A stretch of 35,546 bases of DNA. Origin: Candidatus Thorarchaeota archaeon (GTDB taxonomy: Archaea > Asgardarchaeota > Thorarchaeia > Thorarchaeales > Thorarchaeaceae). Of this stretch, positions 3,931 to 32,985 are shown piece by piece. The stretch covers positions 1 through 35,546 of the forward strand of contig PRDI01000077.1 in NCBI GenBank assembly GCA_003345595.1, given 5' to 3'. Numbering within the stretch: the first letter of the stretch is position 1; each line of letters opens with the position of its first letter. Position numbers and translations under genes: made by a program. Under the pieces are notes generated by a model that did no database searches, had not been told where the DNA came from, and saw only the letters and a list, made by a program, of their open reading frames with translations.

Positions 3931-6900
3931 CTAGAACAGCTCTGTGAGGGTAGCCTGTACCTTCTCCAGGGCCTCGAAGTTCGGAGGATTCACGAACAGG
4001 CACGCCCTGACGACTCTCTCATCGCCCGGCATCAACCAGCACCTGAAGTCCATGCTGATGCATGCGGCCATCTCGTTAGTGCAGACTGCGATTGATCCAG
4101 GATCCAACCCTGCCCAAAGGATCCCTAGTCCTTCATTGCTCTCCTGAGTTCCGCTCCTTCTGAGCCATAGAGAGTTTGTTTCTGGGGTGACAGCGGCAGG
4201 GACTGGCACGTTTCTCAGGTCCACCTCACTACCTCCCCAACGGGTATGCACGATGGAGCCTCCAAAGACACCGTTGAACCCCGGATCCGCAAAAAGGCAT
4301 GGTATGAAAAACAGCGGTGCTTCAGTGGGGTTCTTGATGACCCAGTTGACAAGGACCATGGGACTCTCCGGGGCAGCAAGGTACTGAAGTCTGTATTGCA
4401 CTCCTCGGATTGTCTGCTGGATTTGGCTTGTCCAGCTCACCTCCACCCCCTTCCAGACCCCACCATGCTCGCAGGGCCTAACGTCCATCTTCTCCCTGTT
4501 CGTTTTAACTTGGAAGAAATCCTCCCCCGAGCTGTCATCCCACACTAACGGCTGGACTCCTCCATAGTAATTGTCCATGAACAGCTTGGGTGCGGGCTTC
4601 GGGAATGAAGAACACAGGAGCTCTGTGGAGTGACTGTTCTTGAGAGAAAACAGGCAGCCTCCATAGTCTGCTGAAACAGCGAACTCAGCGACCCCATTGT
4701 TCACGCGGAACACTCTTATGCCCTGCTCCATTCCTTCTGTGACAGTAACCGCGGACCCAGCAGATCCGAGCTGGAGCAACGTGAAATACTCGCGGAACTC
4801 CATGGGCGTGCGTACTCTCACGAGGCCTCTCTCGACTGAGAATCCAACCTTTCTCAGATCTGTGGGCTTCAACGTCAATATGTATTTCTGAAGACCTTGA
4901 ATCACTGTTTCTTTTGACTCATCAGTGCCCTGCTCGGCCGTAAGTGCACTGCCGCCCAAGCGCCTAATATCGGCATCCCACCCCTCTGGCGATTCAACTT
5001 CAACGTTTCCGATTACGGGGGCACTGACGGTGTTTTCGACTGTCAGTTCCGCCTCTGCACTTTGCCTATGAGGGATTATGACGGTCTTCTTGCTGACGGC
5101 AATCATCGGAAGAGTAGGCCGGCGCATACCTGCCTTCTGTATGTTCTCGAATTCGCCTTTGACATTCGCCTTCCAGATTCTCTGGATATCACGCCAGTCG
5201 CTAGCGGCAGCGATGTTCCATACTTCCGAAATGCACTTTGTTTCTTTTCCTTTGAGCCTGAGGGGCTTTGAAACGATGCGTGACAGTTGTCCAGCAGCAA
5301 GATACACAGACTCAAGATTAGTGGCCTTCCATACTTGGCCAGACGCTCCTGACGGGCCACCTGTGGCAACCCACTCCTCCGTAAGAGAGCCAAGCTCACT
5401 AGGTATTGATGGGTAACTCATAAGCAAGTTACCCGTCGGTGCCTCGACTACACCTGCTGGTAGAGGGACGAAGACACGGTCGAAGTTGAGTGGAATGCCA
5501 CCTTCTCTGCCATTGAGTCTGACTTGCATTTCGTGGCTTTCCTGACCTGTGTTTGTGACCCACACTTCGTGCTTGAGCACTGGCGACGAGTTGAGAGCGA
5601 CCCAACGATCCTCTATCACGAGTGGTCTTTCAGGATGGGTGGCAGTGGCTGATACTACTAGGCCTGACTCTGTTTCCCGGACCCTGACATCTCGCTCAGT
5701 GAAGCGGAATGGGCTTAATCCGAAGGGCGGTCCTATCTCTGTTGAAAGGGCCATTTGAGTGATCGAGCTGCCGTAGAGGGTGGACAGTCTGAGTATTGCA
5801 CCTTCGCGCAGGATGCGTGCAGTGTACTGCGGAGCGACCAGCAAGACCTCACGAGTACGGTCGTCTTCTCCAGCAGTGACACGGCCTCCTTGTAAACAGA
5901 AGAGAGATATTCTCGACCTTCCCGTCTTGACCTCTCTCCTCTTGCCAGCCTCATCGAGGTATGAGATAATCATGTATGCCCAGAGATCATGCGTCCCAGC
6001 TGGAAGATCCGGTTGAGTAGTGACAGTGATTACGGCGCCTCCGAGGCCCTCTGGAGCAAGCTCAAACTCGGACTCTGGGGGAGTCATGCTAATGTGCGGT
6101 CCGACCTCCTCGAACATGAGCTTCCCTTTCAGCGTCATCGTAGAGTTGTTGACCAAGGTAATGGGAATGGTTACAGTCCCCGACGGTAGAACACGGCATT
6201 CCTTCCATTTCGTCTGGATATCCACGACTGGTTTTATCCTCAAGCCAGTTCGCAGTATGGACTCCTGTCCATTGAGTCGCAGTTTTGCCACGACTGAAGG
6301 TGTTTTGATGTTTCGGCGATAGAGAGGGGCATCCGGTGAAAGGCTGAAGGGGACTGCCAATGTGAATGACTTCTTGGCCTTGACGCGTGTTCTCGCTTCA
6401 GACACGCCGTCGAAGTGTAGTCCCGGCAAGCCCTCAAGGGCAGCTGCGAAATCCATGTCTCTTGCGGTGCCATTCTCGATTCTGAGTTCGTAGACGGAAG
6501 GGATCCCGCACAGGGTCAAGTGCTGGCTCACCTGTGCCCTCACCACAAGACGCCCGTCATGCATGACTCGTTCAATTCCTGTGATTGACCTTGCGAGGCG
6601 ATCAACCAGAACATGCAAATTGTTCTTGCCGCTCTCAAAGTTGTAGACATAGACGGCCATTCCGTGCTCCGTGGTATCGTCAGGCGCCTGAGCCACGTCC
6701 CTGCGCTGCAGTGTGTACCATGCAGCTGGATCTGGATTTGTCGCGAAGAACGGGGCGCACAGAGGATGCCGTAGTATTCCCGGCACATAGCTCTCCATTT
6801 GCACTCCCTGACCTTCGGGATTCCACATGAGTCCCATCTTCTTGTAGAGCGGGACTGCTCTGAGGTTTCCTGCCCACGTACTGAGATCGACTCTAGCATA

Positions 6901-7251
6901 GCCCTTATGAAGAGCAATCTCGAAGCACTTCATCAGGAGGCGCTTTCCGACCTTCTTGTTGAGCGCATCTGGAGTCACACCAAGCGTTCCGACGTATGCA
7001 GCTTCGGGGTCTCTCCAGTGAGACAGGAGAGTGACAGACCCGATCGGTTTGCTAGTTTGCTTGTCAATCGCGATCAATATGGCAAGCGCTCGCATGGACT
7101 GGTACTGCTTGATTACCCTCTCAGCCGTGAAGGGGACCCCCTGGGTGAATCCATCCGGCCAAAGCGACTCCCAGCTGTTGTACATCTCTGCGAGAGGCTT
7201 TGCAAGTTCGTCGCTATAGTCGCGGATCTCGATCGTCGGTTCGTCTGTCAT
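3931..7251 (-). CDS. Large GNAT N-acetyltransferase-domain protein with long beta-rich C-terminal region
   Basis: N-terminal GNAT (YVGTLGVTPDALNKKVGKRLL...NLRAVPLYKKMG) then about 900 aa with Ig-like segments; ATG 7251 preceded by GGAGTGG (track start 7263). Confidence 0.85.
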   Translation of the reverse strand: MTDEPTIEIRDYSDELAKPLAEMYNSWESLWPDGFTQGVPFTAERVIKQYQSMRALAILIAIDKQTSKPIGSVTLLSHWRDPEAAYVGTLGVTPDALNKKVGKRLLMKCFEIALHKGYARVDLSTWAGNLRAVPLYKKMGLMWNPEGQGVQMESYVPGILRHPLCAPFFATNPDPAAWYTLQRRDVAQAPDDTTEHGMAVYVYNFESGKNNLHVLVDRLARSITGIERVMHDGRLVVRAQVSQHLTLCGIPSVYELRIENGTARDMDFAAALEGLPGLHFDGVSEARTRVKAKKSFTLAVPFSLSPDAPLYRRNIKTPSVVAKLRLNGQESILRTGLRIKPVVDIQTKWKECRVLPSGTVTIPITLVNNSTMTLKGKLMFEEVGPHISMTPPESEFELAPEGLGGAVITVTTQPDLPAGTHDLWAYMIISYLDEAGKRREVKTGRSRISLFCLQGGRVTAGEDDRTREVLLVAPQYTARILREGAILRLSTLYGSSITQMALSTEIGPPFGLSPFRFTERDVRVRETESGLVVSATATHPERPLVIEDRWVALNSSPVLKHEVWVTNTGQESHEMQVRLNGREGGIPLNFDRVFVPLPAGVVEAPTGNLLMSYPSIPSELGSLTEEWVATGGPSGASGQVWKATNLESVYLAAGQLSRIVSKPLRLKGKETKCISEVWNIAAASDWRDIQRIWKANVKGEFENIQKAGMRRPTLPMIAVSKKTVIIPHRQSAEAELTVENTVSAPVIGNVEVESPEGWDADIRRLGGSALTAEQGTDESKETVIQGLQKYILTLKPTDLRKVGFSVERGLVRVRTPMEFREYFTLLQLGSAGSAVTVTEGMEQGIRVFRVNNGVAEFAVSADYGGCLFSLKNSHSTELLCSSFPKPAPKLFMDNYYGGVQPLVWDDSSGEDFFQVKTNREKMDVRPCEHGGVWKGVEVSWTSQIQQTIRGVQYRLQYLAAPESPMVLVNWVIKNPTEAPLFFIPCLFADPGFNGVFGGSIVHTRWGGSEVDLRNVPVPAAVTPETNSLWLRRSGTQESNEGLGILWAGLDPGSIAVCTNEMAACISMDFRCWLMPGDERVVRACLFVNPPNFEALEKVQATLTELF

Positions 7252-7398
7252 AAAACAGTCCACTCCTGACTTGGCCGCGTGAACCTACCCACACATTATC
7301 CTATTGGTCTGGGTACTGCCTGCATGGAAAGCGGTCGCCCGAATATTACATCCAAACAAGAGTTTTCTTACGCGGGGAGTGGTAAGGCAGGTGATTTG

Positions 7399-10392
7399 AT
7401 GACCGGGCTGTGGGATGAAACCTCGTTTGCGTATCGGTTCATTCGTCACCTTGTTGTCATCGTTTCCGTTTCGTTTGTGGTGTACCTTGCGAGCGTTCAG
7501 GCTTGGGAGTCTTATGAGATAAGCGTGGGTTACCGCGCAGTGCTGGCTTTCCTCACGATCGAGTGTGCGTCAGCATCACTGTTCCAATCACGAGAAGACT
7601 CATCACCCATACCAGTGCTCTTCGTTTCGTTCTTCGTGTTTTCGTCTATAGACAGTATGATCGGTTCAGCGGAACAGCTGTTCAGTGCGTCTTCACCACT
7701 GGGCCTTCAGTCTGCCGCCCGGACAGCATCTGATCTTGCAGTGCTCAGTATCTTGGGCGTCCTGCTTCTCATCACGTCCTCTCTCAACCATCGGCTGGCC
7801 GACAAGCGAAAGCCGACACTCTACCGAATCACGGTGTCGATATTGATACTGTGTCTTGCAGTTCAGGGTGTGATTCAGTATATCATTCTGGCCATGTCAT
7901 GGGCAGTGATGGTCAGCGGGTTTGTATTTGGACTGGTTGCTTTGGTCACGCTGACAGTTTCCGGTGTGCAATTGAGCAAGGTGGTCCATTATCCCCATCA
8001 GACTGACAGGGTTCGGCTTCTTCTCGGGCCGGTTGTGTTGGGTCTGTCGGCAATACCTTTGCTCTTCTCCTTGATCTGGCCGAGCGCAGTCTGGACAATG
8101 TCCATGACGCTGCAGCTGGCGGGATTCTTCCTTCTTTACTTGGCTCAGGCCATGCCGATGCTGAGAAGCACATCCCTAGGTCGAGCAAAGTCGTACGCTG
8201 TAGCGTTTACAGTGTCGATGCTGGTCATTGCCCCGCTTTTGGTCACTGTCGCCGCCAAAGTGGTGATGCCCACTTTCCATTTGGTGGACTTCGGAGCCTA
8301 CACATTATCACACGTTGGTATATCCGCATTATCGAGTGTAATGGCATTCCTCGTTTTCTCATATTCAAGGCGAAAACCAGACAAGAGATACTTTCCTTTG
8401 ATTCTTATGTTTGCGATACAGGCCCTTGTTGAAATGGGCCAAATCGGAATCGGCCAGCTTTCGGGTGTTGGCGAGACCGCGTCGTTCGTAGCCTACATAG
8501 TGGGGAGTGTGGTCGTTTCAATCGGTCTATTGTTGGTTATAGGATGGGCTGGCCAGCCACAGGACAATGAGAGTAGACTGGGGGTTTGGCTTCTGAAGGG
8601 TTTCGGCGTAGTGTTCGTTATTAGCTTGATTGGCCAGTCAATAGCATTCCTACTAGTTACATCTATTTCCGATATGGCATCAAGTCCCTTGGGTCAAGTC
8701 ATCCTGCTATCAGTGAATCTTGGCAATGTCTTTGGATACACGTATCTCTGTTTTCTGCTTCTCAAATCCTCACAAGGCACATTCACGGTTGAACTGACAG
8801 CTGTCACGTTTCTCGCTCTATGGATTGCTCCAAACATTCTCAGGTCTGTCTTCAACGAATGGTCAGCTGGGTGGTGGTCGGCAGAAGTGCTTCTTCTCCT
8901 TGGGCTATTAGCAGGTCCTGCCTTTCTTGGGACTCTCTATATGGGATCATATCTGCGTGCTGAGACCTCTCAGAAGAGAGCCACTCTCTATGCCGACATC
9001 TTGGTGCATGACATCGGCAACTATCATCAGGCCATTCTGAGCGCACTGGAACTTCTCGACATGAAAGGTGTGCCGCCTGAAGTCGAGGAGAACGCAAGGG
9101 CAGGAGCACTCGATGCGCTCGCCCGAGCCTCGGAACTGACCGGGAGTGTTAGACAGCTTGCTAGGGCTGACGCAGCGAAGAGTGAACAGCTGGTGCCGGT
9201 CGACCTGGCTGCATGCATCACCGATGCTGTCAGGCAAGTGGCGGTGAGAACGCCTGAGATCGATGCACATATTCGTTTTGAAAGTGAAGAACACTACTAC
9301 GTAGACGCGAACAGCCTATTGATCGATTTGTTCCTCAATCTCTTCCATAACGCTATTCAGTACTCTCCTAGTGAGAAGAGAATCGATGTCGAAGTATCAT
9401 CCATTGTCTTTCGTGGGAGGAACCATTGGGAGGTTCGGGTGGTAGACCGTGGAGCAGGGATTGCCCCTGAGCAAAAGAAGAAGCTCTTCAGCAGATTCAT
9501 GGAGGGAGCTCGGGGAACAGGACTTGGCCTTTCTCTCGTTCGCACATTGACGGACGCATTTGGCGGCGATATCTTGGTCGAAGACAGGGTCGTTGGTGAT
9601 TTCACGAAGGGTACTGTGTTTGTCGTGCGCCTACCAGTTTCTGTGACATCAAAGTTCCTGAAGACCAGATTGAAGGGAGGATTGGAGAGGGCGATTCACG
9701 CTGCGTTGACAGGTCTCTACCCGATTGTGGTCATCGGCAGCCAAGCAGAAGTACGATTCACTATCGACATGCTCAGAATCTATGCAGCTCACCGAACAGA
9801 CCTACGAGCGTGCTACGACATTACCAGCTCGGAATGTCAGATAGGAACATGTGATATTGAAGGGATGCCGGGAGGGTCATCAAGAGGTCTTCCCTCGCAC
9901 TACGTTGTTGTGGACTTCACAAGCCAGAGTGTGACCGGGGGAGCTTCATGCAGGGCATGCATGGATTTCCTTGAGAGAACGAGTTCTCTGCCGGCGAACG
10001 ATTTGAGGAAAGTGGCACTTGAGCAGGTAAGTCAAGTTCTTGGGAATGCTAATGAGCTGGCTCGCATCCTGTCAGAAGAAGAACCATCTCGGTCGAGTGA
10101 CTTGGCAGCGTGGAAGACGCGACTGAGCCCCGAGTCAAGGGAGGTGGCTCTGGATGTTCTTCAGGGCCAATCAGGTCTTGGTCGCTTTCTCAGAGAGGCT
10201 GGGATGGTGTGTCCGCCCTCAGTACTGGCAGGCTATGATAAGCAGCTAATTGTCGTGGGCGACAGGGTCCTTCCTACTGGTAGGCCGAGTCAGGATGATA
10301 TGAGTGAAATACTGAAACGAATGGCGGCGGCAGTCAAGGACTTGGTTGGGTCCGAAGTATATGCATCGATTGAATCAAAGAGTGGGATTTAG
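7399..10392 (+). CDS. Polytopic membrane sensor histidine kinase with extra C-terminal domain
   Basis: Many TM segments; H-box HDIGNYHQ, N-box NLFHNAIQY, G1 DRGAGI, G2 GTGLGL; about 240 further residues; ATG 7399 after GGTGA (track start 7279). Confidence 0.9.
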   Translation: MTGLWDETSFAYRFIRHLVVIVSVSFVVYLASVQAWESYEISVGYRAVLAFLTIECASASLFQSREDSSPIPVLFVSFFVFSSIDSMIGSAEQLFSASSPLGLQSAARTASDLAVLSILGVLLLITSSLNHRLADKRKPTLYRITVSILILCLAVQGVIQYIILAMSWAVMVSGFVFGLVALVTLTVSGVQLSKVVHYPHQTDRVRLLLGPVVLGLSAIPLLFSLIWPSAVWTMSMTLQLAGFFLLYLAQAMPMLRSTSLGRAKSYAVAFTVSMLVIAPLLVTVAAKVVMPTFHLVDFGAYTLSHVGISALSSVMAFLVFSYSRRKPDKRYFPLILMFAIQALVEMGQIGIGQLSGVGETASFVAYIVGSVVVSIGLLLVIGWAGQPQDNESRLGVWLLKGFGVVFVISLIGQSIAFLLVTSISDMASSPLGQVILLSVNLGNVFGYTYLCFLLLKSSQGTFTVELTAVTFLALWIAPNILRSVFNEWSAGWWSAEVLLLLGLLAGPAFLGTLYMGSYLRAETSQKRATLYADILVHDIGNYHQAILSALELLDMKGVPPEVEENARAGALDALARASELTGSVRQLARADAAKSEQLVPVDLAACITDAVRQVAVRTPEIDAHIRFESEEHYYVDANSLLIDLFLNLFHNAIQYSPSEKRIDVEVSSIVFRGRNHWEVRVVDRGAGIAPEQKKKLFSRFMEGARGTGLGLSLVRTLTDAFGGDILVEDRVVGDFTKGTVFVVRLPVSVTSKFLKTRLKGGLERAIHAALTGLYPIVVIGSQAEVRFTIDMLRIYAAHRTDLRACYDITSSECQIGTCDIEGMPGGSSRGLPSHYVVVDFTSQSVTGGASCRACMDFLERTSSLPANDLRKVALEQVSQVLGNANELARILSEEEPSRSSDLAAWKTRLSPESREVALDVLQGQSGLGRFLREAGMVCPPSVLAGYDKQLIVVGDRVLPTGRPSQDDMSEILKRMAAAVKDLVGSEVYASIESKSGI

Positions 10393-23084: not shown

Positions 23085-23266
23085 GTAGATACGTAGGCCG
23101 AGAGTGATCACTCACTTGATGACCCGTCAGCAGTTGTTTACCTCTGCTATGGGATAGCCGCTGCCAGACCCATCGATGGTGGAGTATATGGCACCATCAC
23201 CGCCCTGCCACGGGCCCCACCAGACCTTCGCTGTCTTCTGGAAGGAGGTGTAGATGTAGCCTGAGC
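23085..23266 (-). repeat. Repeat R4: degenerate terminal copy of the cassette repeat with no tip attached
   Basis: SGYIYTSFQKTAKVWWGPWQGGDGAIYSTIDGSGSGYPIAEVNNC*RVIK*VITLG; two in-frame stops. Confidence 0.9.
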
Positions 23267-23538
23267 CCCGTGAGCAGGATGGGTCGGCGAGTAACACGAA
23301 GAGAAGCCCCGTCATTGCCGCTGCCTGCTTCATACTATCCTGGCAGCATACGGTCCGGACTTGTTCCAGCTGTCGAGAATCACTGCATGAGCCTCCCGAG
23401 CAGAACCTATCCACCTGCTTCAGGCATACAGAGTACAGTATGGGACCTGAGAACTCGCCATGGTGCCTCACTTCCTGTATTAACGTGGTTGATCGCATCT
23501 CGGGAAGAAAGAGAACCATTGATGACACTGAGCCTGCG

Positions 23539-24225
23539 TCACCAACCTGTGGCAATCCCCCATGAAACGAGCATCACCAGCGCAAGAAGAAGAGCCTGGA
23601 CCGCCAAGAGCGGCCTGAGGGCCTGCTTTTCCGGCTTCTCTGATGCTCTGCCCTGGGCAAGTGAACCATCCAGCAGGCCAACTGTGTCATCGACAATGCG
23701 GCCAAGTTCGTCCTTACGCGTTCTCAGCCGCTCTAAGACTGCAGCAGATTCACGGTTGCAGTCAAACCTTGCTCTCCTCCACACGATTTCAATGAGATGA
23801 TTGGTCACGTTTCGCTTGAGAGTTCCTGATCGAAGATGCCTCACAAGGTCTCTCTCTATGCGCCTGTCCATATACCCGATCGACCACTTTCCTATCTTAG
23901 AGGCATCAAACAGGACGAGTAATACTGTGCTCAACGGAACGCCCAGAAGCCATATGACGTATAGGATGCGTGACATCTGAGTCACCAGTTGGAAACCCAA
24001 GTCGAATGTTAGGGATTCGAGGACTAGAAGCAAGAAAGGGAGGACTGACCACGCAGCCAAGGCATACATCAAATCAAGTGCCTTTCCTGAGAAGAGGACT
24101 TCCCGCAGCTTGGCGCCATCCGGGCGTACCCGGGGCAGTAGTGCCGCGAAGGATAAGAACCCAGCCCAAGTCAGGGCAATTACAGCCGTTGCTGTAAATG
24201 CGTCAGTCCACGTCATGCTTATCAA
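23539..24225 (-). CDS. Membrane protein, putative immunity/partner for tip 3
   Basis: 228 aa, 3 N-terminal TM, soluble helical part and C-terminal TM; starts 3 nt after the tip-3 stop. Confidence 0.7.
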   Translation of the reverse strand: MISMTWTDAFTATAVIALTWAGFLSFAALLPRVRPDGAKLREVLFSGKALDLMYALAAWSVLPFLLLVLESLTFDLGFQLVTQMSRILYVIWLLGVPLSTVLLVLFDASKIGKWSIGYMDRRIERDLVRHLRSGTLKRNVTNHLIEIVWRRARFDCNRESAAVLERLRTRKDELGRIVDDTVGLLDGSLAQGRASEKPEKQALRPLLAVQALLLALVMLVSWGIATGW

Positions 24226-24228
24226 CCT

Positions 24229-25213
24229 CTACTGAAGTGCCATCAATGACCTCTCGTAGAACAAACACCGGCAGTACCAAGTGACGGCGCCGATGATGAA
24301 TTTGATGACTAAGCTAATAGGTATCCACCATCCTCCGAGCTTTGCCAGTGCTTGGATTTTTGTGAGATTCTTTGCAGCGGCCATAAGCTTGTGCACTGCT
24401 GCCAAAACGATCAGGGCCTGGACGACTGTTTCACCCATGAGAGCGACTGCGAAGCCCGCCGTCAATGCTCTTGCTTCGAGAAGCGTGAGAGCACCCGTGT
24501 CCACACTTGACCAGATAAGCGGCAGCCACAGGAACCAAAATAGGACCCACGCAGTGACAAGGACCGCAGTTGCAACTCCGAGTGTAAGGACTCCAAGACT
24601 CAAGGAAGTGTCAATGGCAATCCATGCCAATGTGAGCAATGTCAAATACACTCCAAAGGGACCGCCCAAGTCCAGCAACAAGGCATCGCCTTCCTCCACT
24701 TGCAGCGCCTCTTTCTGACTCTGAGAGAGTCCGTCATCCCAAGGCGTATCGAAGAAGGCAGACTCTACTCTTGTGTCGCCAAGCAAGTCAACAGAGATCT
24801 GCAAGACCATATGGCCTCCGTATTCTGTGAATGCTTCGTAAGCCCCGAGCAATCGGGGCCACAACTGACTCATCCAAGAGAACACAATTGACGCCATCTG
24901 ATCGAGAAGAAGGTCGCGGCGTATCTGTGAACTGGGGCCCAGATTCTCAGGATCACCGAGTGCGCCTTCTGTGCTGCCATCGTACCCGATAGGCTCCTCC
25001 GGGTCAGGCGCCGTGGGGTCATGCCTCGTTAGGTCCGCGACGACGTTGATGTCGTGTACGCGCATGTCGACGAGCGAGTATGTGGAGTACCTCTGTCCGA
25101 CTGTGACCACGTACTTGATCACCCGAGAGCAGTTGTTGACCTCTGCTATGGGATAGCTGCTGCCAGACCCATCGATGCTCGAGTATATGGCCCCATCACT
25201 ACCCTGTCACAGA
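24229..25213 (-). pseudogene. Orphan cassette 3: repeat R3 plus alternative hydrophobic C-terminal tip
   Basis: R3 about 24983-25213 (TGA at the conserved W, then QGSDGAIYSSIDG...HDPTAPDPEE), open to 24229; no signal peptide or N-terminal domains. Confidence 0.85.
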
Positions 25214-25251
25214 GGCTTCAGATTGTTGCGTTGAGTAGCATCGCCTAGAAT

Positions 25252-25689
25252 TCACGACTCTTGAGCGCTCCTACTGATTGGACCCGACTCTTGATGAGGC
25301 TGAGAGGAACGATTAGTGACTGCCTTGTATGTAATCCATGCGGCATAGCATAGACTGACCACTGTCATGCTGCCGGTTGCGCCGTCGAGAAATACACTGA
25401 CCACGCCTGTCCACGTCCCGGCGGTCCAGCCGACAAATGGGAGCACCACGGAGCCAGTCAGCATCATAGCTTGCAGGAGTCTCGCACGAGAGGGGTTCGC
25501 AGCGACCCACTTTGCCATTGAGTTCATGTGCCTGAAAGTCACTTCCCGTCCGGCCGCCTTCGTAATTCTGGCAATGGTAATCATATCCTCCACGAAGAAG
25601 ACAAACAGAAGGAATACCAGTGCCACAGACAAGGCACTCACAGCCAAGATTATATTCAACACGCAGTCCAATCGCACTCACAACTCCAT
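25252..25689 (-). CDS. Membrane protein, putative immunity/partner for tip 2 (early TGA, or restart at GTG 25677)
   Basis: GGAGAACACT ATG GAG TTG TGA GTG CGA..., followed by a 141-aa three-TM ORF 25252-25677. Confidence 0.65.
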
Positions 25690-25779
25690 AGTGTTCTCCC
25701 AGACCCCTGAGTATGACTGGGGACGATTGCATCTTACGGACCATTCTCGCAGGCAGTGCATCACTTGACATCAGTCTCC

Positions 25780-26832
25780 TCAGAACGATTTCACTAGATG
25801 GTCATACGCTACGACGAAGCACCATATTGAGATTCCTAATAGAACGCAGAGGGCCACTTTCGAACTCAAGAATATGCCTGAGGGTCCCTTGACTTCTGCT
25901 GCTGCTTCCTCGAGCTCCTGAGCTGGATTGGGCCCATACAGAAGATTCCTGATAGTCACTAAGACGCTGAAACCCAGCGCGTTAAGTAGGGTCAGGGCTC
26001 CCCAGAATATGTAGAAGCAGCAAGCATCGAATTCGGTCCAGGCCCCTTTTGCAATCATGCTATTCGAGTATGTTGTCATCTCGTAGATCAGGAGCCCAAT
26101 CGAAGTTGCAAGACAGACCGTCGCGGCGACAAGTGCAGGTATACATCCGGACTCGGCGGCGATCTCAAAAGCATAGGCACTCAACCGGATGTCAATATTG
26201 ATGAGACCTATGATGATGTTGTAGGCGATTGACCTGATTGGATCGCTGGGCTGCAGAAACGAACCGTCTCCAGAAGTCGTTACGTCAAGAATCTCGACAT
26301 ATCCGAGAATGTTCTTCGCCACGTGAACAAGTAGGGTGAGGCCAGCCATGGCAAAGGCGGGGTGTCCTGCTGGAACATTCGAGGGCACAAGCTGGAGGGA
26401 GTATTGATAGTGCAAGAGAGGCCACGGTCCGGTCCAGTATGGGTCCACGACGTCCATTGCCTGAGCCGCTTCCTGATCTGCTCTTGCTCTGTCATACGCT
26501 GGAGGAGTACGTGTCCCATCATAATCTACAGGGTCCTCCGGGTCAGGCGCAGGGGGGTCATGCCTCGTCAGGTCAGCGACCAAGTTTACATCATGGATGC
26601 GCATGTCGACCAGCGTGTATGAGTTGGACCTCTGTCCGACTGTGACCACGTACTTGATGATGCGTGAGCAGTTGTTGACCTCCGCTATGGGATAACCACT
26701 TCCAGACCCATCGATGGTCGACCAAATGGCCCCAGCACCGCCCTGCCACGGGTCCCACCAGATTCTCGCTGTGTTCTTGAAGTTGGCCTGCATGTAGCCT
26801 GAGGTCTGAGAGTAGGACGCGCCATCGCACAT
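25780..26832 (-). CDS. Orphan cassette 2: repeat R2 plus alternative hydrophobic C-terminal tip
   Basis: 350-aa ORF; first about 100 aa near-identical to the matching part of 29800-32985 (R2 about 26530-26826), rest divergent; ATG preceded by AGGAACC. Confidence 0.85.
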   Translation of the reverse strand: MCDGASYSQTSGYMQANFKNTARIWWDPWQGGAGAIWSTIDGSGSGYPIAEVNNCSRIIKYVVTVGQRSNSYTLVDMRIHDVNLVADLTRHDPPAPDPEDPVDYDGTRTPPAYDRARADQEAAQAMDVVDPYWTGPWPLLHYQYSLQLVPSNVPAGHPAFAMAGLTLLVHVAKNILGYVEILDVTTSGDGSFLQPSDPIRSIAYNIIIGLINIDIRLSAYAFEIAAESGCIPALVAATVCLATSIGLLIYEMTTYSNSMIAKGAWTEFDACCFYIFWGALTLLNALGFSVLVTIRNLLYGPNPAQELEEAAAEVKGPSGIFLSSKVALCVLLGISIWCFVVAYDHLVKSF

Positions 26833-26869
26833 GGTTCCTGATTCCAGACGGTCACCTTTGTAGCAGCTG

Positions 26870-27418
26870 TCAATCCTCCTGTTCTTGCCCTGGCTGTAGC
26901 CGTTCTAAGGCGTCCCTGAACGCTTGTCCGACCTCGTCGTCGCGGGACAGGAGCCTCTGCTTTGCGTGCATGTACTCCTTCACCACTACATCGTCAGGAT
27001 CCAGCTTTCTGATCTTGTCCAGTAGCGTTGAAAGCATCCCATCCAAATGCCCGTTTCTGTAATTGTGTTCAATAGTAAGTTCTAAGATCTCGCCGGGCTC
27101 CACGTCCTTTCGTCCTGTTGTTTTAAATCGCCGCCCCAGCACTACGAACGTGAATGCAGGAGCAAACATCAGAACGACCAACACCACACCAACCTCAGGA
27201 TGCGCTGCTTGAATCCACAACATGGGAAGAACCCAGAAAAGAAGCACCAGGAGCATGGCTTCGTATGCCGCAGTGGCCCTTCGACGCGTACCGAAGACTC
27301 TGTGTCCTACGTTGCGCAGAGTGGACGGCCCTCTGTTTCGAGAAGTCAGCCAGTCTACAAAAGCGAACAACAGGACTATGCCGGCACTCGCGATTGCCGC
27401 TAATCCGAATGTATCCAC
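26870..27418 (-). CDS. Membrane protein, putative immunity/partner for tip 1
   Basis: 182 aa, 3 TM plus soluble helical C-terminus; 13 nt after the tip-1 stop. Confidence 0.7.
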   Translation of the reverse strand: MDTFGLAAIASAGIVLLFAFVDWLTSRNRGPSTLRNVGHRVFGTRRRATAAYEAMLLVLLFWVLPMLWIQAAHPEVGVVLVVLMFAPAFTFVVLGRRFKTTGRKDVEPGEILELTIEHNYRNGHLDGMLSTLLDKIRKLDPDDVVVKEYMHAKQRLLSRDDEVGQAFRDALERLQPGQEQED

Positions 27419-27431
27419 GATTCAAGGCCTC

Positions 27432-28606
27432 CTAGGTGCTCCAACCCATAGCAAGGTAGTATCCAACATACCATGCACAGGTCAACATGACGGCCATCTT
27501 GATAAAGGCCACTGCAAAGAACCAGATGCCTCTGTTGAATCCAGCTGGGGCTATCGGGAAGGGCTTACAGGCTTTGTAGAGCCTGTACATGAGCCAGCCC
27601 GCCGCAAGATCAGGACCTACGCCCGGGAATAGTAGCATAATCAGACTCAGGAAAGCGGCGGCCGCACCGTATGGATGCATCACATTGTTTTCCACTGCCC
27701 ATTGGATAAATGCCACATACGCTAAGAACAGGACGGTCCATGCGCCCAACATCGCCAAGAGAACCCAAATGCTGGTAAGCATAGCAAGCGGACTGGCAAG
27801 ATTCTCGATTAGCATCAGCCCATACTTCAATGCGAAAGCCAAACCCACTGGCGCCACGAATTTGACTAGGAATTCGGCCCACCCACTGTCCATCTGTTGA
27901 GCCACTGCGCCCATCTCTTCTTCTGTACCCTCGGCCTCTATGCTTGACGCAATGGACAAAGTATGCACCTGAATATCTCCCAGGATATCGACGGAGATCA
28001 GCACATTGAATACGGTCTCGATCACGTCAACGAGTTCTAGGAACAAGCGGGGCCAGAAGTTCACTAGAGCCCAGTATGCCTCCAGGGAAACACTCAGCAA
28101 GCTGAGCGTCTGTTCTCCCTCTTCCTGACCACACTCAGGAGTGGGAGCGGTTCCATCGCTCTCCTCCGGGTCGGGTGCTGTCGGATTGTGCCTTGTCAAG
28201 TCAGCAGCAGCGTTGATGTCATGTACGCGCATGTCGACCAGCGTGTATGAGGAGTACCTCTGCCCGACTGTGACCACGTACTTGATGATGCGTGAGCAGT
28301 TGTTTACTTCTGCTATGGGATAGCCGCTGCCAGAGCTGTCAATGGTCGAGTATATGGCGCCAGCACCTCCCGGCCACGGGTCCCACCAGATCTTCGCTGT
28401 CTTCTTGAAGTTCGTGTAGATGTTGCCTGAGGTCTGAGAGTAGGACGCGCCATTCTGGAAGTAGTACAAGTTGAATCAGCCCCTCTGACTGCCCACCCAA
28501 GCGTCGCCTAGTGCATGAGCAACACGCACTGCTTGTTCTCGTCGAACAGCCCATTGTAGGCTCTTCCCATGGTTGAACTGCACTGCACGAGCTCTCCAAT
28601 CACCGA
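27432..28606 (-). pseudogene. Orphan cassette 1: repeat R1 plus alternative hydrophobic C-terminal tip
   Basis: Open frame 27432-28469; upstream 28470-28606 is a disrupted copy (SVIGELVQCSSTMGRAYNGLFDENKQCVLLMH*) of the main gene; 28227-28304 is identical to 30535-30612. Confidence 0.88.
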
Positions 28607-28614
28607 GGACTCGC

Positions 28615-29019
28615 TCAACCGGCAGAATCGGCAGTTTCCTGAGGAACTGCCCGACTAACGACCAAGCTGGCTATCATCAGAAGGACTGGAACTAGAGGGA
28701 ACCACGCGAGCACATGCATGAACACGGAGAGCATCCCAGAACCCCATAGTGGTATGTCTGACAGCACCGCAGCCAGCGAGATCATCACTGCTGCCCATAC
28801 GACGGTCACGACCGCAAAGGAATCAGGTGCGCCCCGGCTGAGTACGCCGCGAGGCGCACCTGTTGGTCTGCCATCATGCGACCTGAGAGATCCATTATGT
28901 GCTAATATGACGTCACTGAACAGGCGATGGAATCCTATGATGAACGCGAGGTTCGCAAGGATATTAGCCCACGCAAAGATCTCAGTTACCAGTTCGAGTT
29001 GCCACATAGCCACACCCAC
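28615..29019 (-). CDS. Three-TM membrane protein, putative immunity/partner for the truncated tip
   Basis: 134 aa, three hydrophobic segments; 4 nt after the stop at 29024. Confidence 0.65.
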   Translation of the reverse strand: MGVAMWQLELVTEIFAWANILANLAFIIGFHRLFSDVILAHNGSLRSHDGRPTGAPRGVLSRGAPDSFAVVTVVWAAVMISLAAVLSDIPLWGSGMLSVFMHVLAWFPLVPVLLMIASLVVSRAVPQETADSAG

Positions 29020-29023
29020 CTAT

Positions 29024-29350
29024 TCAGAACAGACCCATGCCCAGCATGAATCCGTAAACGATGATAGCAAATCCCACGATCATTTGAATTACCCCGGAAA
29101 CCACGAATCCAACGACTAAGTAGTCCACCGTGGCCCATGGAACGCACCCAGCTGCTAGCACAAATGCATGATAGGCCGCCGATTCCACAAAGGCCATGTT
29201 CAATATTGCGTAAGCAGTGGCATCCATATGGAACCTGAACGCCTCAGGCAAAGCGTCTACCGCCCTATCGACTCATCTATCAATCCAAGCACCTCACCCT
29301 TGGTCCTTGATGCAGTGAAGGCCACAAGGCCCCTAGTGGCTCGAAGCATC
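29024..29350 (-). pseudogene. Truncated hydrophobic tip fragment lacking the repeat
   Basis: 75-aa hydrophobic ORF end (29024-29251) in the tip position between two partner genes; upstream frame is broken. Confidence 0.5.
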
Positions 29351-29354
29351 GCGT

Positions 29355-29762
29355 CTAATTCCCTTTATTGTCGGTAGGACGATCTTGCGGTTCATGTAGC
29401 AGCGCATACTCTTTCAGTGGGCCCTCAGAAACCTTTCGACGAGTCGCCATGACTCCTGCAAGGGCGGTCAGTAGCATCCCGACTGAAACCCCGACCAACA
29501 GAACAACGAAGTCCAGCTGTGGAAATGTGCCCGCCCATCTAGCAGCAGCCAAAAGGATAAGAAAGCACACTACCCCAACGCTGCACCCTAAGCCAGAGAA
29601 CCACAAAACCCACCATTGCTCTTCGTCCGCCATCATGCTCCACGGCTTTTTCCGTGTGCCAATCGCCTCGTAAGCCAGTAAGTAAACCGAGAGGACTGAG
29701 ACTGACCATGACGCAACCAGAAGCAGTAACGAGAGCACCAGAGGATCCATCACTTCTTGCAC
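29355..29762 (-). CDS. Three-TM membrane protein, putative cognate immunity/partner of the full-length protein
   Basis: 135 aa, three TM, directly downstream of 29800; alternative ATG at 29750. Confidence 0.7.
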   Translation of the reverse strand: MQEVMDPLVLSLLLLVASWSVSVLSVYLLAYEAIGTRKKPWSMMADEEQWWVLWFSGLGCSVGVVCFLILLAAARWAGTFPQLDFVVLLVGVSVGMLLTALAGVMATRRKVSEGPLKEYALLHEPQDRPTDNKGN

Positions 29763-29799
29763 TGGGCTTCACCTTCCAAACTTCAGACTGTATGTTGAT

Positions 29800-32700
29800 T
29801 CATGGAACGAAGCGCGTATAGAGAGCAGCCGTGACTAGCGCAAAGCAGGCTATGCATTTAAACACGAAGAGAATCCAGCCACCAGGCAGGATACTCAGTA
29901 GCGCCTCTGTGACATCTTTGCCGGCCAGGATACTGCCGAGTATCACATAGCCGAACGTCAGACAGAATGCCCCGAAGCAGAACACTAGACCAGTGAGCAG
30001 CAAGACCCAGAATCTGAACCAGGGGTCAAAGCCGCTATTCCTTAGAGATGCTTCCAGTATCGTGATAGAGTAGGTGTACAAGATCATCCAGTCGAATCCC
30101 AGAGCAACAGCGAATGGAATCCAGCCCGGATTAGAGTTGGATGCGAAACAGGCTGATGCCCAAAACAATTCGATTAAGTACAGGCCTGCCATTACGACTA
30201 GGTTGTCAATGATCAACTGCATAGCAGCGTTGACGATAGCCGAGTTGTCCAGTGTCTGAATGCTGTTGCCCATGTCGTCAGTAGCAGCGAGCGTTTCGAG
30301 TGTTCTAGAGCCCAGCAGGTCTGACTTTACTTGAACCACCAGTGACGATCCGCTCGGGTGGTACTTCTCCACTCTGGTGTGCAGTTCAGGCCAAGGTATG
30401 GTCCACCAGCTATTCACATGCTGAACCCAGTCCGCGTCGGGCGGATCTGCCGTCTGGCCCACGCCTAGGTCAGTCCCGTCATATATCGCGGGGTCGTGTG
30501 TCGTCACGTCAGCGACAACATTGACGTCATGGATGCGCATGTCGACCAGCGTGTATGAGGAGTACCTCTGCCCGACTGTGACCACGTACTTGATGATGCG
30601 TGAGCAGTTGTTGACCTCTGCTATGGGATATCCGCTGCCAGACCCATCGATGGTCGACCATATGGCGCCGTCACCGCCCTGCCACGGGTCCCACCAGATC
30701 TTCGCCGTCTTCTGGAAGTTGGTGTAGATGTAGCCAGAGGCTTGAGAGTAGGACGCGCCGTCCTCAAAGTAGTACAGGTTGAACCACCCCTTCTGGCTCC
30801 CATACCAGGCGTCGCCCCAGTAGACAAGCATCACACACTCTTTGTTTTCGTCGAACAGCCCCACGTAGGCTTGGCCCATGGTGTAGCTGCTCTGCACGAG
30901 CTCGCCGATAACAGAGAAATCGCTCAGCTGGTAAAGCCTGAACGGCCTGTCCAGCACATGCACGTACTGCGGTCCATGCCAACCTGATATCCCGGACACT
31001 ATCGAGGTCCACTTCATGTAGCTCTGTCCGGATGGGACCTCAAGAACACCCTCCGAAGGAGGGCCATAGGGGAACGTCAGGTCCTTCTGGAACTCATACA
31101 TGTCGTTGCATGCGTCGTGGAACACCGTGTAGTCCGAGTAGGCGTAGCTCAACCTAAGGGAGTAGATTCTTTCATCATGCTCGTTGAGGGAGCCGTAACG
31201 GTAGCTCTGGATCGCCACATACTTGATTATTCTGTTAGTATTGATCTGCGTATAGCAGTAGAGCCAAAGTTCATCCTTTCCCGGAACGTCTGCAAACAGT
31301 CCTTGCAGGGGATCGAACCTTATCTGCACAACTCCAGATACGTCACCAGTGAGCAGGTTCGATTGAAGAGACTTGCTAGTCCCGTCCTCGTTGTAGTAGC
31401 ATGCAGTGAAGACCGTGGCCGCAGTGTCTGTCCAGGAGTCAGCAACATAGAGTAGCACTGCTAGCTTCTTGTTTGAGTCGTACAATGCTACGAACGTCAC
31501 ACCCACCCGTGAGGCTTGGCCACTGTGCACAAGCGAAAGGTTTGCTGAAAAGGAACCGAGGTCCTTCATCTTGAAATAAGACGGCAGAGTCATCACGAAC
31601 GACGGACCATGCCAAGAGGTTCCCGTTGGGATGTTCGTAACAGTCAGGTATGTGCCAGTCGAGCCTATTGAACCGGTTGCTTGTGTATATCCCGGAAGAT
31701 TAGGCCAGCTCGAGTCATACTCGTAGTCGGATCTCCCACAAGAGTCGGTCCACAGACCGCCTGTCCTGCCCGGGTTGCGACCCACCACAGGCTCTGACCA
31801 TATGCCGTCCACCTTCTGCCTAGAAACATAGACACCGCCAGCACCTATCTGGTTCAACGATATCGAATCGACAGAGTCGAGGACACTGCCGCTCGCAGTG
31901 ACGTTCACCCAGACCTGAGTGTAGAGCGAGCCGTCTCCGGAATAGACTACGACACCTGAGTACGTGCCACCACAGAACACCAGTGGGCCATACTCCCAGT
32001 GTCCACGAGGTGCTATGTATATGTAGACCTGACTATAGCTTTCCGCGCCCGGAGGAGAAAGAAAGTCCGGACCGCCATCTGGGATCCATGTCGCCTCTTG
32101 ATAGTAGTTCCTCGTGTAGTTCACGGAGAGAGCCATCAGGGTCCTGAGATAGGGTACCCCATAGATGTCGAAATAGACTTTGTAGTAGTCCACTATTAGG
32201 TCTCTGAGGTCCAGAGGCAGTGCATTGAACCCGTCGGGCCCGGAGAGCTGTACCCATGTGGAGGACCTGAGGACCATGTACTCATCTGTATAGGTGTCAG
32301 AGTAGTGAGCATCTACGTACTCGATCTCGTCAAGAATCACCTGTTCGAAGTCCATGATGTGCACGCTGCAACCTGACTGAACGAGTTCCTTTGCCGTGGT
32401 CAGTTCTGTCGTCCTGTACTGCTCGACCATCTGGGAATTGATGCCGAGCGCAAGCATGACCGCTGAGGCAATCTCGACGTTGGTCACCTCCGCAGGTCTG
32501 ACACCAGGAACTGTGTAGAGTTTCTTCGCTGACTCCTCAATCCCATAACTGATGAGCCTTCTACTCTCACACGCTGCAAACAGGTGAAGGGTCGCTTTCG
32601 AGTCCTCGACTATCCCCGCCATCGCTTTCCATGAAGTGAGACGCGATCCAGTGACTATGCCTTGTGGTCCCCCGTGGGACATGTATATCACGACTGAAGC

Positions 32701-32985
32701 ATCCAGAGACTTCGCCGCACTTGGGTCACAGGTCTTGATCAGAATCAACCTGTCCACGAAGAATGGATCATCTGTTATGAATGAGGACAGTCTTCCCATC
32801 AGTTCTTGTGTAGCCCAGTCAGTGTCTGTATCGCCTGACAGCTGAAGAATGACGACGGTCGGGCCTGCATTTGCAGCATCAGCTTGCCACGCAGTTGAGG
32901 CGACAAGCTGAATCCCAAGAATCGTTGCTACACTTACTGCACACAGAATCACGATTGCTCGTGCTGAACGAACAGCTAGTTTCAT
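29800..32985 (-). CDS. Large exported multidomain protein, putative polymorphic toxin/recognition protein (caspase/CHAT-like domain, two tandem beta-rich domains, variable hydrophobic tip)
   Basis: 1061 aa; N-terminal basic plus hydrophobic signal/anchor; VVIYMSHG (H104) and LFAACES (C139); internal duplication WHGP...RIIKYV; 4-5 hydrophobic helices at the C-terminus; segment 30490-30915 repeated downstream. Confidence 0.8.
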   Translation of the reverse strand: MKLAVRSARAIVILCAVSVATILGIQLVASTAWQADAANAGPTVVILQLSGDTDTDWATQELMGRLSSFITDDPFFVDRLILIKTCDPSAAKSLDASVVIYMSHGGPQGIVTGSRLTSWKAMAGIVEDSKATLHLFAACESRRLISYGIEESAKKLYTVPGVRPAEVTNVEIASAVMLALGINSQMVEQYRTTELTTAKELVQSGCSVHIMDFEQVILDEIEYVDAHYSDTYTDEYMVLRSSTWVQLSGPDGFNALPLDLRDLIVDYYKVYFDIYGVPYLRTLMALSVNYTRNYYQEATWIPDGGPDFLSPPGAESYSQVYIYIAPRGHWEYGPLVFCGGTYSGVVVYSGDGSLYTQVWVNVTASGSVLDSVDSISLNQIGAGGVYVSRQKVDGIWSEPVVGRNPGRTGGLWTDSCGRSDYEYDSSWPNLPGYTQATGSIGSTGTYLTVTNIPTGTSWHGPSFVMTLPSYFKMKDLGSFSANLSLVHSGQASRVGVTFVALYDSNKKLAVLLYVADSWTDTAATVFTACYYNEDGTSKSLQSNLLTGDVSGVVQIRFDPLQGLFADVPGKDELWLYCYTQINTNRIIKYVAIQSYRYGSLNEHDERIYSLRLSYAYSDYTVFHDACNDMYEFQKDLTFPYGPPSEGVLEVPSGQSYMKWTSIVSGISGWHGPQYVHVLDRPFRLYQLSDFSVIGELVQSSYTMGQAYVGLFDENKECVMLVYWGDAWYGSQKGWFNLYYFEDGASYSQASGYIYTNFQKTAKIWWDPWQGGDGAIWSTIDGSGSGYPIAEVNNCSRIIKYVVTVGQRYSSYTLVDMRIHDVNVVADVTTHDPAIYDGTDLGVGQTADPPDADWVQHVNSWWTIPWPELHTRVEKYHPSGSSLVVQVKSDLLGSRTLETLAATDDMGNSIQTLDNSAIVNAAMQLIIDNLVVMAGLYLIELFWASACFASNSNPGWIPFAVALGFDWMILYTYSITILEASLRNSGFDPWFRFWVLLLTGLVFCFGAFCLTFGYVILGSILAGKDVTEALLSILPGGWILFVFKCIACFALVTAALYTRFVP
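30490..30915 (-). repeat. Repeat R0: master copy of the cassette repeat
   Basis: Partial copies at about 28165-28606, 26530-26826, 24983-25213 and 23085-23266, all in the same orientation. Confidence 0.95.

Follow-up and report, generated by a model that had tools for sequence, protein, structure and literature searches.

The window analyzed here, positions 1 to 35,546 of contig PRDI01000077.1 from the 2.7 Mb, 129-contig and 83% complete assembly GCA_003345595.1 of a Candidatus Thorarchaeota archaeon, contains a gene for a large exported protein (hereafter the main gene) followed by an array of spare C-terminal ends and small membrane protein genes. Our analysis supports the view that the four C-terminal ends encoded here, which we call tips (one in the main protein and three in orphan cassettes), are alleles of one lineage-specific hypervariable module with a single predicted fold. 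Given the cassettes, the partner gene downstream of the tips and the modular exchange of tip and partner, we put forward, at a probability of roughly 0.45, that the locus serves self/non-self discrimination of the polymorphic toxin/immunity type, in which the tip would be a membrane-active effector neutralized by its cognate partner.

The motif that an earlier, sequence-only reading of this stretch had quoted for all four tips is present as written in the translations: WWTIPWPELH...SDLLG in the main tip, YWALVNFWPRLF...VDILG in tip 1, YWTGPWPLLH...KNILG in tip 2 and WMSQLWPRLL...VDLLG in tip 3, with W-x-WP-x-L ... [DN][IL]LG common to the four. When the six-frame open reading frames (ORFs) of the whole genome were scanned (1.35 million residues), the expression W.{0,6}WP.[LIMF].{12,40}[DN][IL]LG matched four times, always at this locus. 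The comparison set consisted of 20 further arrays from 14 related genomes, and 45 tips were excised with a hidden Markov model (HMM) of the recombination handle, a homologous stretch preceding each tip; alignment A1 holds 44 tip sequences, and some counts below are over 44 and others over 45 tips. The tip alignment (44-45 tips, 14 genomes) shows an invariant W in WP and at least 90% conservation of the W four positions before it, of the P, of the second L in DLLG and of a linker Asp-Gly. The strict motif is found in 38 of the 45 tips and D[IL]LG, about 20 residues further on, in 33 of the 45, with no conserved column in the alignment past DLLG. Complete tips are ~220-285 residues long, and hydropathy resolves four hydrophobic segments in 29/44 and three to five in the others, at similar positions.

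Compared with one another by BLASTP, the four window tips show significant similarity solely over the first ~85 residues (linker and neck), and the kinship of their helical parts is visible only by profiles. In a leave-cluster-out test, each tip was scored against a profile built from the helical parts of tips with <10% normalized similarity to it, and 165 segments of other proteins encoded in the same genome, each with four peaks of hydrophobicity, served as decoys. Thirty-four of 44 tips scored above every decoy, including all four window tips (main 14.9, tip 1 41.3, tip 2 20.0 and tip 3 22.4 bits, with decoy maxima of 9.6, 6.9, 9.6 and 11, respectively), so that profiles made without a tip's close relatives do recognize the helical part of each of the four. 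With the fourth neck strand included, the count rises to 37/44. Compared by BLASTP with full-length homologues, the window tips align as whole tips over 223-233 residues at 26-41% identity (E 1e-12 to 1e-54), and the complete full-length homologues all end in the same tip family, regardless of their number of jelly rolls. Furthermore, when 1.84 billion representatives were searched with a tip-only profile, at least 228 clusters (50% identity) were retrieved; the tip lies at the C-terminal end of the protein in 150 of 150 among the matches listed, and nearly all of them span the whole profile. The leave-cluster-out profiles, the common ending of all complete homologues and the 228 C-terminal clusters together support a single family, and so the initial suggestion of one diversified fold, rather than an array of unrelated enzymatic tips, is upheld. 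The tip profile was found in 28 of 76 genomes of one Thorarchaeota taxonomic family and in none of the 225 genomes searched from the phylum's other families. In the literature searched, which did not extend to a 2019 survey of archaeal polymorphic toxins, nothing relevant on a polymorphic toxin, kin-recognition or hypervariable system of Asgard archaea or Thorarchaeota was found, nor any description of a family matching the tips.

An AlphaFold2 model of the main tip alone, computed from the 44 sequences of A1, has a predicted local distance difference test score (pLDDT) of ~90 and agrees with the model of the full protein. The modeled tip opens with a short W-rich helix (aa 851-854) followed by four strands (857-862, 867-875, 881-888 and 894-902), a neck that maps to 30280..30435 on the minus strand (aa 851-902; secondary structure in the two models and conservation). 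It continues into helices 914-951, 953-983 and 988-1020, a short helix 1025-1031, and helix 1035-1059, which make up the predicted helical membrane bundle (29809..30246, minus strand, aa 914-1059; AlphaFold2, hydropathy and profile score). In the model the motif sits at turns of the neck, WP (aa 865-866; 30388-30393, minus strand) between strands 1 and 2 and DLLG (aa 889-892; 30310-30321, minus strand) between strands 3 and 4, both with verified coordinates. Because of these positions, the common "skeleton" noticed in the sequence-only reading is best understood as the frame of a predicted small four-stranded beta neck atop a four-helix membrane bundle. The four to five hydrophobic helices counted in that reading agree with the main tip, where AlphaFold2 gives four long and one short, and become three to five when hydropathy is considered across the 44 tips. 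As modeled, the module comprises a disordered linker with the Asp-Gly, the W-rich helix, the beta neck, four long membrane helices and one short cytoplasmic helix.

Database searches do not place this module within a described family. Pfam (E<=1) and NCBIfam (E<=0.1) searches with the main protein, tips and partners returned chance-level matches only, as did a PDB profile search with the tip alignment. The Foldseek comparison that the sequence-only reading had suggested, run with the main-tip model, gave nothing at E<=1e-3, a wide VIA-align search reached middling values (best Z 9.0, to designed and generic helical proteins), and the ESM Atlas gave no usable match for the tip. In the cores of the transmembrane (TM) helices, charged residues do not clearly distinguish tips from decoys, except for slightly more Lys in tips.

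The second element of the system is a small membrane protein. For 43 of the 45 tips a three-TM-type ORF is found within ~200 nt downstream, with a plan of an N-terminal TM helix, a ~35-residue K/R-rich loop, a TM hairpin and a K/R-rich tail, and a size of 110-230 aa; its positive-inside pattern fits an N-out/C-in protein. Arrays in relatives alternate tips and partners, with occasional partner-only genes, and reach up to 7-8 cassettes, although cassette counts per genome are lower bounds, since most arrays (L019-L038) lie at contig ends and repeats break assemblies. The partner of the main tip is 54% identical to the partner of a related tip in another genome (G003), and partner 1 is 85% identical to the partner of the copy of tip 1 in a congener (G001). 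A motif R-[DE]-[DE]-E-x-G-x-x-[FA]-R was observed in the helical cytoplasmic tail of a subset of partners, the others having no such tail; in the window it occurs in two partners (26870-27418 and 23539-24225), and it is also found in four other arrays (L019, L025, L026 and L035).

The main gene and the array all lie on the minus strand, in the order main gene, two small hydrophobic ORFs and three orphan cassettes. The main gene (29800..32985; ORF and translation) encodes an exported protein of 1061 aa, of which aa 832-1061 form the variable tip, and its recombination handle (30487..30926; aa 687-833; repeat search and BLASTN) corresponds to the second half of the last jelly roll. The two small ORFs are the partner of the main tip (29355..29762; 135 aa, three TM, partner HMM E 6e-16) and a tip-less partner-like ORF (28615..29019; 134 aa, three TM, assigned by the partner HMM at E 1e-10 and by its position in the array). 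Orphan 1 (27432..28617) has an ORF at 27432-28469, a tip-only part at 27435-28178 (tip profile E 1e-103) and a handle remnant at 28195-28617 with stops upstream; it is followed by partner 1 (26870..27418; 182 aa, three TM, and a cytoplasmic tail with R-D-D-E-x-G). Orphan 2 (25780..26832) comprises a handle at 26554-26826 and a tip-only part at 25783-26550, and partner 2 (25252..25677) has 141 aa and two to three TM (partner HMM E 3e-13). Orphan 3 (24229..25210) comprises a handle at 25012-25210, an ORF at 24229-25122 whose frame is open from 25206, and a tip-only part at 24232-25011, with partner 3 (23539..24225; 228 aa, three TM plus a C-terminal hydrophobic segment, partner HMM E 8e-28) behind it. 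The array ends in a decayed handle fragment (23098..23279) that matches main aa 745-805, has two internal TGA codons and no tip, and adjoins an unrelated PhzF gene.

At the DNA level, each orphan starts with 180-420 nt that are 84-88% identical to the region encoding main residues 687-833 (repeat search, BLASTN). This homology has a common 3' end at window positions 30487-30503, that is main residues 828-833, beyond which BLASTN finds no similarity between the orphans and the main gene; nucleotide similarity does collapse after the repeat, as had been proposed. In the orphans, H-D-P is followed by a common A-P-D-P-E-[ED]-P linker (24980-25011, 26520-26550 and 28150-28178), which is absent from the current main gene and usual in relatives. 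Orphan 3 and partner 3 lie in the same reading frame with one stop and one codon between them (23539-25122), and elsewhere about one third of tip/partner pairs are in frame, which equals the chance expectation; a read-through fusion of the two was considered and then dropped.

The pairing of tips with partners proposed in the sequence-only reading stands as a genetic tie: besides the 43/45 tips with a partner downstream, similarity between the helical parts of tips correlates with similarity between their partners (r=0.81, 0/2000 permutations). In contrast, N-terminal similarity and tip similarity are not significantly correlated among 24 full-length proteins (r=0.10, 185/2000 permutations). 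Tip and partner are thus inherited and exchanged together, while tip and ectodomain are not. Two homologues (P0012/P0014) represent a natural tip swap: their identity is 90-100% across residues 1-900, falls to 62-70% within the last jelly roll and reaches 10-20% for the tip. A recent event is apparent in the window itself. From 28187 to ~27228, it shares 98-100% nucleotide identity with the congener (L029, G001) inside flanks that are ~83% identical, and the block contains tip 1 and the first ~64 codons of partner 1. Synonymous divergence from the same congener is 0.06 in tip 1 versus 0.40 in the handle and in the partner as a whole. This pattern points to recent exchange between two congeneric species, with breakpoints in the handle and inside the partner gene. 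Overall, homologous recombination in the handle places a different tip-plus-partner module behind the same ectodomain. Between genomes, the ratio of nonsynonymous to synonymous divergence (dN/dS) of tips is 0.09-0.19, orphans included, versus 0.5-0.6 between paralogues of one array; judged by these ratios, tips are under purifying selection between genomes even as orphans.

The protein that carries the tip is a large exported, lectin-like surface protein. Its AlphaFold2 model (82 aligned sequences, mean pLDDT 83) has a signal or anchor helix at aa 8-38, an alpha/beta domain (aa ~40-235 by annotation, with secondary structure over aa 44-203) and a beta-rich region at aa ~236-830, the final part of which forms two galectin/ConA-like jelly rolls. 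In Foldseek, the tandem beta domains match tandem galectins and other ConA-like jelly rolls (galectin-8, E 6e-7). The number of jelly-roll repeats varies from two to five among homologues (P0007, P0017, P0023 and P0044), and precomputed Pfam annotation places DUF2341 or PF21174 on some of them.

The alpha/beta domain (window 32281-32883, aa 35-235) contains His104 (SHGG) and Cys139 (AACES), both invariant in ten homologues, and in the model of the full protein each is preceded by a strand (98-102 and 133-137), which is the order expected of clan CD peptidases, namely first a His and then a Cys, both placed behind hydrophobic strands in an alpha/beta fold. The domain has no Pfam match and a PDB profile search with its alignment gave nothing significant; the nearest named ESM Atlas cluster is CHAT at 0.90, a weak match with few shared features. 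On the other side of the ectodomain, Asp836-Gly837 (30475..30480, minus strand; YDGT in the translation) is at least 90% conserved across tip alignments A1, A2 and A4, within a linker before the tip (aa 832-848) that is predicted to be disordered (pLDDT <50). The invariant His104 and Cys139, in an order typical of clan CD, together with a conserved Asp-Gly in a disordered linker, suggest that Asp836-Gly837 is a putative processing site, possibly cut by the N-terminal domain of the same protein (autoprocessing).

In the toxin/immunity interpretation favored here, the tip would most likely dissipate ion gradients, as the ionophore bundles of contact-dependent inhibition (CDI) do, and only the cognate partner would neutralize it, inside the membrane. 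The spare cassettes and the partner genes that lack a tip would be a source of new specificities and additional protection, and the N-terminal His/Cys domain might cut at the conserved Asp-Gly. The route to a target cell would be constrained by topology. Tips have a K/R density of 0.13 in the ~33-residue loop between TM3 and TM4, compared with 0.04-0.07 elsewhere, a charge pattern that is positive-inside for an N-out protein. With no secretion machine nearby, this pattern argues against insertion from outside, and any transfer of the tip to other cells would have to preserve topology, for example by vesicles, membrane fusion or exchange after lectin-mediated contact.

Among known systems, the CDI ionophores and their CdiI proteins (CdiA-CT EC93 family; Halvorsen et al. 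2024) are probably the closest functional analogue of the tip/partner pair. CDI ionophores are divergent membrane bundles of five helices, and their cognate immunity proteins are small, hydrophobic and polymorphic (PMC11630599). As here, one large family of very divergent, membrane-spanning helical bundles occupies the C-terminal end of a big surface protein, and the gene directly downstream encodes a small protein that is very hydrophobic and just as polymorphic; the many cognate pairs serve self/non-self discrimination, as is proposed for the tips. However, the tips have no sequence kinship with CDI ionophores and lie outside a CdiA/CdiB/VENN context, with no CdiA, VENN or haemagglutinin-repeat Pfam domain at E<=1. 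The partners, with three TM and 110-230 aa, differ from the 72-100-aa two-helix hairpin of CdiI, and the tips have a beta neck instead of a helical entry domain, a resident-type charge and a single-membrane archaeal host. For comparison with the five-helix bundle of CDI ionophores, AlphaFold2 gives the main tip four long helices and one of 7-8 residues. Glycine zippers (G-x3-G-x3-G), the only sequence element common to CDI ionophores (PMC11630599), occur in 3/45 tips versus 23/165 decoys and are thus not enriched. With no glycine zipper, no CdiA context and a differently built partner, the tips do not belong to the CDI family.

In its layout the locus resembles polymorphic toxins with orphan arrays (CdiA, Rhs, MafB; Zhang et al. 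2012, PMC3482391). In both, the N-terminal part of an exported protein is conserved and gives way abruptly to a variable C-terminus, every such C-terminus has a small gene behind it, and promoterless spare cassettes keep a homology handle. The window has the demarcated variable C-terminus, the downstream gene of cognate type and orphan cassettes with a handle (three plus one decayed). A caspase-like processing domain, possibly represented here by the N-terminal His/Cys domain, would be a further likeness, since polymorphic toxins commonly contain releasing peptidases of caspase-like type (PMC3482391). Unlike classical systems, with their many unrelated enzymatic folds, the tips are all integral membrane domains of one family that match one profile full length, and they lack the known trafficking, pre-toxin and immunity domains. 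Classical systems of this kind are also reported to be rare in archaea (PMC3482391). Closer in host is VARTIG of the Thermococcales (Makarova et al. 2021, PMC8416519), likewise an archaeal locus with a polymorphic-toxin-like layout, in which a large secreted protein has a C-terminal part made hypervariable by recombination and is followed by small, mostly membrane proteins. However, the variable part of VARTIG is an Ig domain of an arCOG07710 protein, whereas here it is a predicted beta neck and four-TM bundle with no Ig-family Pfam match; the two systems belong to different lineages and have no homology.

Several observations weigh against the toxin/immunity interpretation. No homology to any toxin or immunity family was found in Pfam and NCBIfam searches with tips and partners or in PDB and fold searches with the tip, and the low frequency of glycine zippers points the same way. 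No secretion or delivery apparatus was found beside the arrays, whose flanking genes differ between genomes, and the K/R-rich TM3-TM4 loop in its positive-inside setting suggests a resident, co-translationally inserted domain for which insertion from outside is unlikely. A tip of the same kind is present on all homologues, which is what a structural anchor would show. Additionally, the coupling of tip and partner could reflect mere linkage of adjacent genes.

Some of these observations would fit a non-lethal form of allorecognition, which we regard as a possible, if tentative, alternative. Here tip and partner would form a cognate resident membrane pair that acts as an identity tag: matching pairs on cells joined by the lectin-like ectodomain would permit adhesion, membrane exchange or fusion, and a mismatch would block these or trigger a response through the cytoplasmic tail of the partner. 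The positive-inside topology of both proteins is that of resident proteins, the galectin-like ectodomain suits cell contact, and allelic diversity is extreme on a conserved scaffold. Furthermore, the R-[DE]-[DE]-E-x-G tail motif of some partners could be a signaling surface, and the lack of a delivery machine encoded beside the arrays poses no difficulty. A precedent of sorts exists in IdsD and IdsE of Proteus mirabilis, where identity is established by allele-specific binding through variable regions in or near membrane segments. However, delivery of IdsD depends on a type VI secretion system, no cassette arrays are known for it, and it shows no homology with the tips. Silent cassette arrays and tip-less partner genes are typical of toxin/immunity loci and, to our knowledge, are not a hallmark of bacterial recognition receptors such as TraA and Ids. 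The variable part is also mostly buried in the membrane, where it would make no contact with a neighboring cell unless membranes mix.

It is unlikely that the tip is a passive anchor that only fixes the surface protein in the membrane, with the partner as an assembly or stability factor. Diversity would then arise from relaxed lipid-facing helices, from recombination among paralogues or from escape from viruses docking at the membrane-proximal neck. The presence of a tip on every homologue and its resident-protein topology agree with such a role, as does the uniformly low identity across all tip helices, which leaves no specificity hotspot. Nevertheless, a single TM helix would be enough for anchoring, and the purifying selection seen on tips (dN/dS 0.09-0.19), orphans included, is difficult to reconcile with it. 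The retention in many genomes of intact spare cassettes with intact partners, the near-identical ectodomains with unrelated tips, and an inter-species exchange that comprised exactly a tip and the start of its partner also speak against a passive anchor.

A role in mechanotransmission or signaling, with the bundle as a distant relative of MacB/FtsX (type VII ABC) permeases that works together with the three-TM partner to pass signals of the lectin ectodomain through the membrane, is very unlikely. Permeases of this superfamily do recur among the fold matches to the tip, in VIA-align with HrtB (Z 8.8, rmsd 3.7 over 125 residues), BceB (7.7), LolC/E (6.9), YtrF (6.8) and FtsX (6-6.7), and in Foldseek with FtsX (probability 0.98, E 0.14). 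However, these Z values are lower than the level that the tool states as common for helical bundles (~13), and we take the MacB/FtsX likeness as a lead only. There is no Pfam match to FtsX and no ABC ATPase gene nearby, the neighbors being unrelated housekeeping genes, and both the hypervariability and the cassettes would be left unexplained.

Pore-forming colicins have a membrane-active C-terminal domain that is recognized within the bilayer by a small polytopic immunity protein of the E1/A type. Kinship with these proteins, with which the sequence-only reading had compared the tips, is scarcely credible: although the three-TM partners recall colicin immunity proteins in size and plan, and the tips are membrane-active by composition, no tip matches PF01024 at E<=1, the Pfam, NCBIfam and PDB profile searches were empty, no colicin chain is among the listed Foldseek and VIA-align matches (a family not listed is not thereby excluded), and the predicted architecture, a beta neck with four to five long helices, differs from a ten-helix globule with a buried hydrophobic hairpin.

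Two further large proteins are encoded elsewhere in the window, one of 1110 aa (3931-7263) that combines a GNAT domain at its N-terminus with a FixG_C-like Ig fold, and one of 1037 aa (7279-10392) with a HATPase_c domain.

The locus has the full genetic logic of a polymorphic toxin system in an Asgard archaeon, each part of it undescribed in the literature searched, with a single membrane-embedded fold diversified into hundreds of types that each have their own partner. Because the tips form a single family, the question is a tractable one: a single assay and a single structural template would do for every allele. If specific, the pairs would offer a first handle on self/non-self discrimination or conflict at the membrane in relatives of the eukaryotic ancestor, as well as a natural library of orthogonal intramembrane protein-protein interfaces. 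In a more speculative scenario, which we hold to be doubtful, Thorarchaeota would possess an allorecognition system in which the lectin-like protein joins cells, membrane-embedded cognate pairs decide on membrane mixing, and mismatch is punished after exchange. The pairs would consist of a four-TM tip and a three-TM partner, with hundreds of alleles swapped from silent cassettes. If true, the lineage closest to eukaryotes would have a prokaryotic system of compatibility that governs fusion or exchange between cells.

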